From: Escherichia coli
Lineage (GTDB): Bacteria > Pseudomonadota > Gammaproteobacteria > Enterobacterales > Enterobacteriaceae
Assembly: GCF_003790525.1 (NCBI RefSeq)
Contig: NZ_CP033635.1
Length of the DNA: 64,000 nucleotides
Reading direction: 5' to 3' (one strand)
Under the pieces are notes generated by a model. That model was given only the letters and a program-made list of their open reading frames with translations. It searched no databases and had not been told where the DNA came from. Numbering within the stretch: the stretch's first letter is position 1; the number at the start of each line of letters is the position of its first letter. Positions 9,589 to 38,009 of this stretch are shown here, one piece after another. The translations under genes and the position numbers were made by a program.

Positions 9589-11004
9589 ATGACAGATCTT
9601 CCCGACAGCACCCGTTGGCAATTGTGGATTGTGGCTTTCGGCTTCTTTATGCAGTCGCTGGACACCACCATCGTAAACACCGCCCTTCCCTCAATGGCGC
9701 AAAGCCTCGGGGAAAGTCCGTTGCATATGCACATGGTCATTGTCTCTTATGTGCTGACCGTGGCGGTGATGCTGCCCGCCAGCGGCTGGCTGGCGGACAA
9801 AGTCGGCGTGCGCAATATTTTCTTTACCGCCATCGTGCTGTTTACTCTCGGTTCACTGTTTTGCGCGCTTTCCGGCACGCTGAACGAACTGTTGCTGGCA
9901 CGCGCGTTACAGGGCGTTGGCGGCGCGATGATGGTGCCGGTCGGCAGATTGACGGTGATGAAAATCGTACCGCGCGAGCAATATATGGCGGCGATGACCT
10001 TTGTCACGTTACCCGGTCAGGTCGGTCCGCTGCTCGGTCCGGCGCTCGGCGGTCTGCTGGTGGAGTACGCATCGTGGCACTGGATCTTTTTGATCAACAT
10101 TCCGGTGGGGATTATCGGTGCGATCGCCACATTGCTGTTAATGCCAAACTACACCATGCAGACGCGGCGCTTTGATCTCTCCGGATTTTTATTGCTGGCG
10201 GTTGGCATGGCGGTATTAACCCTGGCGCTGGACGGCAGTAAAGGTACAGGTTTATCGCCGCTGACGATTGCAGGCCTGGTCGCAGTTGGCGTGGTGGCAC
10301 TGGTGCTTTATCTGCTGCACGCCAGAAATAACAACCGTGCCCTGTTCAGTCTGAAACTGTTCCGTACTCGTACCTTTTCGCTGGGCCTGGCGGGGAGCTT
10401 TGCCGGACGTATTGGCAGTGGCATGTTGCCCTTTATGACACCGGTTTTCCTGCAAATTGGCCTCGGTTTCTCGCCGTTTCATGCCGGACTGATGATGATC
10501 CCGATGGTGCTTGGCAGCATGGGAATGAAGCGAATTGTGGTACAGGTGGTGAATCGCTTTGGTTATCGTCGGGTACTGGTAGCGACCACGCTGGGTCTGT
10601 CGCTGGTCACCCTGTTGTTTATGACTACCGCCCTGCTGGGCTGGTACTACGTTTTGCCGTTCGTCCTGTTTTTACAAGGGATGGTCAACTCGACGCGTTT
10701 CTCCTCCATGAACACCCTGACGCTGAAAGATCTCCCGGACAATCTGGCGAGCAGCGGCAACAGCCTGCTGTCGATGATTATGCAATTGTCGATGAGTATC
10801 GGCGTCACTATCGCCGGGCTGTTGCTGGGACTTTTTGGTTCACAGCATGTCAGCGTCGACAGCGGCACCACACAAACCGTCTTTATGTACACCTGGCTTA
10901 GCATGGCGTTGATCATCGCCCTTCCGGCGTTCATCTTTGCCAGAGTGCCGAACGATACGCATCAAAATGTAGCTATTTCGCGGCGAAAAAGGAGCGCGCA
11001 ATGA
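9589..11004 (+). CDS. mdtD: MFS transporter MdtD (471 aa)
   Basis: 471-aa polytopic membrane protein; start abuts the mdtC stop (TAAATG); stop overlaps the baeS start (ATGA). Confidence 0.9.
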
Positions 11005-36234: not shown

Positions 36235-36507
36235 TTATTTGATATATGAATCCAGCACCTTCAGAACGACATCCAGATCTTCTTCACGTTTTAGCTCATC
36301 CCCCTGGTGAACGATGTGTTCCGTCAGATGACCTTTAATCACTTCCCGCATCAGACCGTTTACCGCGCCACGGATAGCAGCAATCTGTTGTAAAACTGCA
36401 GCGCATTCGTGCGGCTCGTCGAGCATTTTCTTGAGCGCCACGACCTGGCCCTGAATCTTACTGGCACGCGCTTTCAGTTTCTGTTTATCACGGATTGTAT
36501 GAGACAT
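36235..36507 (-). CDS. rcnR: Ni/Co-responsive repressor RcnR (90 aa, RcnR/CsoR family)
   Basis: 90-aa [24 protein letters not shown]... divergent from rcnA. Confidence 0.9.
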
Positions 36508-36555: not shown

Positions 36556-36590
36556 TACTGGGGGGTAGTATCAGGTACTGGGGGGGAGTA
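36556..36590. promoter_or_regulatory. Tandem RcnR operator sites (TACT-G6/7-N-AGTA)
   Basis: TACTGGGGGGTAGTA (36556-36570) and TACTGGGGGGGAGTA (36576-36590) in the rcnR-rcnA intergenic region; matches the published RcnR recognition motif. Confidence 0.8.
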
Positions 36591-36627
36591 GAATCAGATT
36601 GCCGAATTAATACTAAGAATTATTATC

Positions 36628-37452
36628 ATGACCGAATTTACAACTCTTCTTCAGCAAGGAAACGCCTGGTTCTTCATCCCCAGCGCCATCTTACTTGGTG
36701 CGCTTCATGGCCTGGAACCAGGGCACTCAAAAACGATGATGGCGGCGTTTATCATCGCCATCAAAGGCACCATTAAACAGGCGGTGATGCTCGGACTGGC
36801 AGCAACCATTTCGCATACCGCGGTGGTCTGGTTGATTGCCTTTGGCGGGATGGTGATCAGTAAGCGCTTTACTGCTCAATCAGCAGAACCGTGGCTCCAG
36901 CTGATTTCCGCAGTGATCATTATTAGCACCGCGTTCTGGATGTTCTGGCGTACCTGGCGCGGCGAACGCAACTGGCTGGAGAATATGCACGGGCATGATT
37001 ATGAGCATCATCATCACGATCACGAAGATCACCACGACCATGGACATCATCACCATCACGAACATGGCGAGTATCAGGATGCCCATGCACGAGCCCATGC
37101 CAATGATATTAAACGACGCTTTGATGGTAGAGAGGTCACCAACTGGCAAATTTTGTTATTTGGCTTAACAGGTGGTCTTATCCCCTGTCCGGCAGCAATT
37201 ACCGTGCTGTTGATTTGCATTCAGTTGAAAGCCCTGACACTGGGCGCAACACTGGTCGTCAGTTTCAGCATTGGCCTGGCGTTAACGCTGGTCACCGTAG
37301 GCGTTGGCGCAGCAATCAGCGTTCAGCAGGTCGCAAAACGCTGGAGCGGATTTAACACTCTCGCTAAACGCGCCCCCTATTTTTCCAGTCTGTTGATTGG
37401 CTTAGTTGGTGTGTATATGGGCGTACATGGCTTCATGGGCATAATGCGATAA
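36628..37452 (+). CDS. rcnA: Nickel/cobalt efflux protein RcnA (274 aa) with His-rich loop
   Basis: Membrane protein with central loop HGHDYEHHHHDHEDHHDHGHHHHHEHGEYQDAHARAH. Confidence 0.9.
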   Translation: MTEFTTLLQQGNAWFFIPSAILLGALHGLEPGHSKTMMAAFIIAIKGTIKQAVMLGLAATISHTAVVWLIAFGGMVISKRFTAQSAEPWLQLISAVIIISTAFWMFWRTWRGERNWLENMHGHDYEHHHHDHEDHHDHGHHHHHEHGEYQDAHARAHANDIKRRFDGREVTNWQILLFGLTGGLIPCPAAITVLLICIQLKALTLGATLVVSFSIGLALTLVTVGVGAAISVQQVAKRWSGFNTLAKRAPYFSSLLIGLVGVYMGVHGFMGIMR

Positions 37453-37670
37453 CTCAATCCTTTAGGCTTGCATGTTATCTTCAGCCCAGGATGATTCTTA
37501 AATCAGCTATTTCCGCTGACTCTCTGCTCGCTAAGGATGCTTTTAGGGCATCCTTTCATTTACACTTTTTACGAAATCATGGGATCACTAACAAAATATC
37601 GCTTGTCAGTTATATTGTATGGCAGGAAAGATATGCGACTGATATTACAGATCCCCAAAGTGGAGAGTTT

Positions 37671-38009
37671 ATGACCATTAAAAATAAGATGTTGCTGGGT
37701 GTGCTTTTGCTGGTTACCAGTGCCGCCTGGGCCGCACCAGCCACCGCGGGTTCGACCAATACCTCGGGAATTTCTAAGTATGAGTTAAGTAGTTTCATTG
37801 CTGACTTTAAGCATTTCAAACCAGGTGATACCGTCCCAGAGATGTACCGCACCGATGAGTACAACATTAAGCAGTGGCAGTTACGTAACCTGCCCGCGCC
37901 TGATGCCGGGACGCACTGGACCTATATGGGTGGCGCGTACGTGTTGATCAGCGACACCGACGGTAAAATCATTAAAGCCTACGACGGTGAGATTTTTTAT
38001 CATCGCTAA
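37671..38009 (+). CDS. rcnB: Periplasmic protein RcnB/YohN (112 aa)
   Basis: ORF 37491-38009 trimmed to ATG at 37671 after GGAGAG; signal peptide MTIKNKMLLGVLLLVTSAAWA. Confidence 0.8.
   Translation: MTIKNKMLLGVLLLVTSAAWAAPATAGSTNTSGISKYELSSFIADFKHFKPGDTVPEMYRTDEYNIKQWQLRNLPAPDAGTHWTYMGGAYVLISDTDGKIIKAYDGEIFYHR

Follow-up and report, generated by a model that had tools for sequence, protein, structure and literature searches.

The window (the whole 64 kb stretch of Escherichia coli DNA analyzed here) carries rcnA, also named yohM, encoding a Ni/Co efflux protein of the NicO family, together with the divergent repressor gene rcnR and the downstream accessory gene rcnB (Table 1). The RcnA sequence matched both the Pfam family PF03824 (NicO; 8.2e-70, 235.8 bits with a cutoff of 27.7, residues 13–273) and the NCBIfam model NF007454/PRK10019, "nickel/cobalt efflux transporter" (2.8e-168, 558.3 bits with a cutoff of 195, residues 1–274), and RefSeq genes 100% identical to the window gene carry the annotation rcnA. 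The gene order rcnR-rcnA-rcnB was the same, by annotation, in 12 RefSeq loci. A first-pass annotation of the DNA had placed a His-rich metal-binding loop in rcnA, and the two profile matches, the rcnR and rcnB flanks and the identical RefSeq genes all confirm that the loop is encoded by this gene.

Table 1 Coordinates of the features at the rcnA locus in the window.
Feature	Position	Strand	Evidence and remarks
rcnR, divergent Ni/Co-responsive repressor	36235..36507	-	NCBIfam NF011613 (4e-59), Pfam PF02583
G-tract inverted repeats TACTGGGGGGTAGTA and TACTGGGGGGGAGTA, rcnR-rcnA intergenic region	36556..36570 and 36576..36590		20 bp apart
rcnA (yohM) coding sequence, Ni/Co efflux protein, NicO family	36628..37452	+	274 aa and stop; list of open reading frames, profile matches
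CVN007 forward primer site (generic E. coli MLVA)	36888..36908	+	exact match; primer from PMC8143711 Table 1
VNTR-19 forward primer site (PulseNet O157; O157-19/TR7)	36910..36945	+	1 mismatch here, 0 in O157:H7 alleles; PMC8461963
His-rich span of rcnA, in frame, codons 120–160	36985..37105	+	translation MHGHDYEHHHHDHEDHHDHGHHHHHEHGEYQDAHARAHAN; 18 His in 40 aa
Hypervariable loop core, codons 121–147, HGHDYEHHHHDHEDHHDHGHHHHHEHG	36988..37068	+	location of all indels in the E. coli allele alignment
Three degenerate 18-bp units, CATCATCACGATCACGAA / GATCACCACGACCATGGA / CATCATCACCATCACGAA	37009..37062	+	visible by eye; encode HHHDHE, DHHDHG and HHHHHE
VNTR-19 reverse primer site	37163..37191	-	4 mismatches here, 1 in O157:H7 alleles; PMC8461963
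CVN007 reverse primer site	37236..37256	-	exact match; primer from PMC8143711
rcnB, accessory gene downstream of rcnA	37671..38009	+	Pfam PF11776 RcnB (7.7e-19); RefSeq annotation of homologous loci

Compared to the K-12 reference allele, the window gene is alike in length (825 bp, 274 aa) and in its rcnR-rcnA-rcnB context, with a nucleotide identity of 98.4%. Against a K-12 derivative, 13 nucleotide differences were found, and the sole amino acid change lies within the loop (D134 in the window, H134 in the K-12 derivative). The same allele as in the window is found in strain 4/2-1 and others. Between rcnR and rcnA lie two G-tract inverted repeats, which presumably fit the TACT-G6-N-AGTA operator type of RcnR. 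Efflux of Ni(II) and Co(II) is the known activity of the K-12 protein (Rodrigue et al. 2005, as cited in PMC5183578).

The densest stretches of the loop contain 17 His within 33–36 residues and 16 His within 26 residues, the former in full agreement with the initial estimate of about 17 His in 36 residues. Within the His-rich span, 11 of the His codons are CAT and 7 are CAC. Assuming a typical His frequency of 2.3%, the binomial probability of at least 16 His in 26 residues is 2.6e-20. A six-frame scan of the whole 64 kb for stop-free stretches with at least 7 His in 26 aa returned, besides the rcnA loop, one other cluster only. This second cluster (9771..10581, minus strand, up to 9 His in 26 aa) was rejected as a gene; it corresponds to no listed open reading frame and runs antisense within a 471-aa transporter ORF (9589..11004, by reading a candidate mdtD), whose reverse-complemented Met and Val codons account for the His-rich frame. 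Likewise, a Met- and Val-rich ORF of 89 aa on the strand opposite the loop itself (36880..37149, minus strand) was dismissed as a by-product of reverse-complemented His codons. The rcnA loop is thus the one genuine His-rich stretch of the 64 kb.

Across a 32-sequence alignment (35–79% identity), the RcnA residues G24, H27, L29, E30, P31, G32, H33, K35, G183, P186 and C187 were found to be invariant, and the protein contains the conserved motifs HGLEPGHSK in its first half and GGLxPCPA in its second half. An AlphaFold model built on the same alignment (mean pLDDT 82, pTM 0.73) was used in place of Kyte-Doolittle hydropathy, which gave overlapping and unusable helix calls. In the model, a helix of residues 83–120 leaves the membrane and is followed by a coil (residues 121–149) and another helix (residues 150–165) ahead of the second half of the protein, and the mean pLDDT of 10-residue blocks is 50–65 over residues 121–170. 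The region between the helices (residues 108–192) contains 8 Lys and Arg residues, which by the positive-inside rule favours the cytoplasmic side. A cytoplasmic loop was also predicted by DeepTMHMM for RcnA homologs from cable bacteria with the canonical RcnA architecture (PMC11247825). The loop is thus predicted to be a disordered and probably cytoplasmic segment, and its composition, taken with the literature, suggests that it binds Ni/Co. H27, E30, H33 and C187 lie in the broken helices found in each half of the protein and in the model likely form the translocation site. A sequence search of solved structures with RcnA gave only spurious, short and weak matches to His-rich tails (E about 1e-3), including cobaltochelatase, and the best hit of a Foldseek search against the PDB had an E value of 2, so that neither sequence nor fold pointed to a solved relative of NicO/RcnA.

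The repeat structure of the window allele is modest. The loop DNA had been described as repetitive, which holds for the three degenerate 18-bp units (unit 1 matches unit 3 at 17 of 18 bases and unit 2 at 13 of 18 by direct count) but not for any repeat that Tandem Repeats Finder would report at a minimum score of 30 in the region 36600..37500. Lowering the score to 20 gave only CAT (3.7 copies), ATCACG (2.2 copies) and CATCAC (2.0 copies). In an 840-bp allele from another genome (L001), the same program detected an 18-bp period with the consensus CATCATCACGACCACGAA, 4.2 copies and 80% matches. A 789-bp allele differs from the window allele by the loss of exactly 36 bp, corresponding to units 2 and 3, with the deletion lying between two copies of ATCACGAA.

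Length variation was assessed by a megablast search of rcnA against 5,426 complete E. coli genomes, 5,365 of which contained the gene; no rcnA match was present in the other 61. Allele counts were derived from thresholded searches and from evenly spaced samples of at most 60 rows from the 5,365 rcnA-bearing genomes. Among the matches listed, 15 gene lengths were seen (786, 789, 804, 810, 822, 825, 840, 846, 849, 852, 858, 864, 870, 876 and 882 bp), every one of them a multiple of 3, with lengths changing in multiples of 6 within the classes that carry perfect hexamers. Sixty rows taken at even spacing included 59 full-length matches, of which 51 were 825 bp long, and the remaining lengths were 789, 804, 810, 822, 840, 846, 852 and 858 bp. 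Overall, alleles of other lengths are carried by at least about 580 genomes (11%), in line with 8 of 59 in the sample, and the 825-bp length is common to roughly 86–89% of genomes. In strain ZF31 (NZ_CP047455.1), only nucleotides 1–111 of rcnA are kept, adjoining a "hypothetical protein" and yehA, which suggests that most of the gene has been deleted there.

The length differences were found to be confined to the loop. In an alignment of nine allelic proteins (262–285 aa), all indels fall in the region between the conserved ...WLENM and EYQDAH... segments, and the remaining approximately 235 residues are almost invariant. Eight variant alleles were retrieved, and all eight have an intact open reading frame. 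Within the 825-bp class, amino acid changes are concentrated in the loop (D134H, G122E and Y125H, the latter two found in O25:H4 and O103 alleles), and differences elsewhere are mostly synonymous. Considering the best 120 protein clusters at the 90% identity level, in which all named members are from E. coli or Shigella, 40 distinct loops of 27–53 aa were found. The length variation between strains that had been predicted from the repetitive DNA is thus borne out by the 15 lengths and by the placement of the indels of the nine aligned alleles, and comparison of the loop across rcnA alleles shows that its length is not invariant. As all length changes keep the frame and all eight retrieved variants are intact, a phase-variable on/off contingency locus was ruled out.

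A codon-level comparison divided the alleles into three classes. Class A, the window and K-12 type, is built from degenerate 18-bp units and comprises mainly the 825-bp allele of most genomes, as well as an 840/849-bp type in 146 genomes and a 789/786-bp type in 30. Class B contains a perfect (CACGAG)n tract encoding (HE)n, giving genes of 804, 810 and 822 bp with four, five and seven units in about 85, about 40 and 14 genomes, respectively; these were counted with a shorter-allele query at E 1e-68, as a threshold of E <= 1e-50 was too permissive, admitting 4,811 common-class genomes. Class C, the O157:H7 type, contains a perfect (GACCAC)n tract encoding (DH)n, is 846–882 bp long and was found in 266 genomes. 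One of these 266 copies lies on a replicon labelled as a plasmid, all other copies being chromosomal, and could reflect either a mislabelled replicon or a real transfer.

The classes differ greatly in how their length varies. Sampling of 60 class C rows gave O157-type rows with n = 6 (30), n = 7 (15), n = 8 (5), n = 9 (2), n = 10 (3) and n = 11 (1), and four more-divergent alleles had n = 6 or n = 7 length; among the individually retrieved alleles, L006–L008 span n = 5–7, with (GACCAC)5 seen in L006. For the sampled rows of the 266 genomes, the main O157-type identities equalled pure-indel ratios (234/240, 228/234, 234/246, 234/252 and 234/258), from which it follows that the O157-type alleles with n = 6–11 differ in repeat number alone, without flanking substitutions. 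Class B alleles likewise differ by the number of CACGAG units alone and have identical flanks, and across classes B and C the perfect hexamers range from 4 to 11 copies. Class A, on the other hand, keeps its 825 bp across phylogenetically distant strains with gene divergence up to about 2.7%, and its rare length variants differ by 3, 9, 15 or 36 bp. The window allele lacks a perfect (GACCAC)n tract even though it occupies the same locus as the O157 alleles; it is a length-stable form, and frequent copy-number change is confined to the perfect hexamer alleles. The view that the loop DNA is prone to slippage accordingly holds for alleles with perfect 6-bp tracts, which change by whole units, but not for the degenerate and length-stable window allele.

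Variation in the length of the rcnA loop is already known and has long been used for strain typing. Both primers of CVN007, a locus of the generic E. coli MLVA scheme of Lindstedt et al. 2007, match the window exactly (0 such matches expected by chance) and delimit an amplicon of 369 bp, for which the published formula (PS-314)/18 gives allele 3, as (369-314)/18 = 3. The 18-bp unit of CVN007 matches the three degenerate units of the window, and the window loop is that locus. In the papers on CVN007 that were consulted, including PMC8143711, the locus is given by name and primers, with the rcnA loop unmentioned. The primers of the PulseNet O157 locus VNTR-19 (synonymous with O157-19 and TR7; PMC3768571) flank the loop in rcnA as those of CVN007 do, although the variable (GACCAC)n tract of VNTR-19 is missing from the window allele; the amplicons predicted for the O157:H7 alleles (303, 309 and 315 bp) fall inside the published range of 283–357 bp. 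CVN007 and VNTR-19 are thus the RcnA loop, a link established by primer matching that is new here, together with the census of allele classes. A further candidate, the MLVA locus CVN014, whose 6-bp unit varies strongly within ST131, was discarded: ST131-type (O25:H4) rcnA is 825 bp long, and the CVN014 primers are unrelated to the region.

Taken together, we consider it highly probable that the RcnA loop is a disordered, cytoplasmic metal-capturing arm that behaves as an in-frame protein-length VNTR, with a rate of change set by repeat purity. In this proposal, the central loop would join the two halves of the membrane protein, and its His- and acid-rich sequence would bind Ni(II)/Co(II) on the cytoplasmic side and concentrate the metal or pass it to a membrane pathway, the latter probably built from the family-invariant H27, E30, H33 and C187. 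In-frame gain or loss of codon repeats would be tolerated because loop function would require a His/Asp/Glu composition and not a fixed sequence. As the loop DNA consists of 6-bp and 18-bp units, slippage or unequal recombination would shift its length in multiples of 3 and keep the frame, making the locus a protein-length VNTR rather than an on/off switch. The pace of change would depend on repeat purity, with copy number shifting within clones wherever a (GACCAC)n or (CACGAG)n tract is perfect.

The whole-unit 6-bp differences in classes B and C, combined with identical flanks, are what replication slippage or unequal exchange would leave behind, pointing to copy-number mutation within clones, and a repeat deletion in Salmonella arose within a single animal passage (PMC6760104). 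Both observations speak against homologous recombination or gene conversion among old, divergent loop alleles as the main source of the diversity, an explanation that we regard as possible but rather unlikely. It would account for the three classes, whose loop sequences are far apart beyond copy number, and for the mosaic look of the 840-bp allele L001, which shares with class C the unit CATCATCAAGACCACGAA otherwise found in O157-type alleles; the 36-bp deletion bounded by an 8-bp direct repeat would fit recombination and slippage alike. Differences between classes do seem too large for slippage alone and probably reflect old alleles and some mosaicism. Artefacts of assembly or sequencing are an exceedingly improbable cause of the length differences, even though some sequencing chemistries are error-prone in low-complexity repeats: each of the 15 lengths is divisible by 3, steps within classes are multiples of 6, identical alleles turn up repeatedly in independent complete genomes (tens to hundreds), and the same polymorphism has been seen by PCR fragment sizing in about two decades of MLVA.

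The consequences of loop length for the protein can be read in more than one way. Length could be adaptive, a "tuning knob" for the capacity or selectivity of Ni/Co efflux that is under selection from the metals each lineage encounters. Every allele keeps the His-rich composition, the Salmonella STTR5 alleles cluster in the mid-range, which was read by the authors as functional constraint (PMC5183578), metal selection has been speculated on (PMC3391293), and the loop is greatly expanded in cable bacteria (PMC11247825). The concentration of amino acid changes in the loop, with almost only synonymous changes in the rest of the gene, would also fit, but relaxed constraint accounts for it equally well. 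Moreover, copy number varies among close O157:H7 isolates of similar sources as expected for a neutral fast marker, and the dominant E. coli allele is constant in length over very different habitats, leaving the adaptive explanation unlikely. Its more specific form, in which repeat number is a selectable dial for Ni/Co that lineages with hexamer tracts (O157:H7, Salmonella) keep fast and that most E. coli froze by degenerate repeats, appears more doubtful still. Two roles are considered for RcnA in PMC11247825, export and chelation by way of the loop, and the possibility is raised there that the loop stands outside the transport mechanism as a membrane-tethered chelator or buffer sequestering Ni/Co. 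The inclusion of cobaltochelatase among the weak structure matches of the His tract (E about 1e-3) is in line with such a role, but about 16–20 His per protein would be a small sink compared to toxic metal loads, and the invariant membrane-embedded His, Glu and Cys residues indicate a translocation site. Furthermore, the loop of some family members is almost devoid of His, and expression of rcnA was reported by Rodrigue et al. 2005 to reduce cellular Ni/Co. A pure chelator is consequently quite improbable, and a metal-capturing arm serving the membrane pathway remains our preferred reading.

The original observation is correct and ordinary, and the interpretation is supported and long established: the locus is a classic case of an in-frame protein VNTR, in typing use for E. 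coli, O157:H7, Salmonella and Klebsiella. With the link to CVN007 and VNTR-19, decades of MLVA data amount to a survey of loop length in RcnA. The contrast within one species between a degenerate, stable allele and perfect hexamers of 4 to 11 copies illustrates how repeat purity governs instability, and the natural rcnA length alleles provide material for asking whether loop length affects Ni/Co efflux.

Length variation in the same gene is also described for other species in the literature. [quoted passage not shown] In Klebsiella pneumoniae, a CATGGT repeat inside rcnA serves as an MLVA locus (PMC3948817). As with the hexamer alleles of E. coli, both are in-frame 6-bp rcnA repeats that encode His dipeptides and vary in copy number between strains, though their HD and HG repeat units differ from the degenerate HHHDHE-type units of the window.

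Across 51 diverse members of the family, the loop spans 9–245 aa, contains 0–57 His and is mostly of HD/HG/HE/HP low complexity. About 11 of the 51 full-length members (P0121, P0123, P0125, P0130, P0133, P0134, P0136, P0138, P0146, P0241 and P0248, all RcnA-family representatives from outside the window) have a conserved insert of approximately 100 residues in the central loop besides the His tracts, with recurring motifs that include IDTGHG...LE..FE..VPPRWRL...GYLES..IPEPHxF...GHxGHVHxYD. Outside the loop, one of them, P0121, shares about 80% identity with E. coli RcnA. A Pfam scan of three insert-bearing proteins left the insert uncovered and returned only a split NicO match and a DsbD_2 match, plus one weak ZIP match that was due to the His tract in one homolog; the insert may represent an undescribed domain in a metal-efflux protein.

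A disordered, His-rich loop of variable length between transmembrane helices is also found in other divalent-metal transporters, namely CDF/ZnT/MTP1 and ZIP proteins, which belong to families unrelated to RcnA, with no significant fold or sequence match of RcnA to solved transporters. The cytosolic His-rich loops of these transporters have proposed roles in metal sensing, buffering or delivery.
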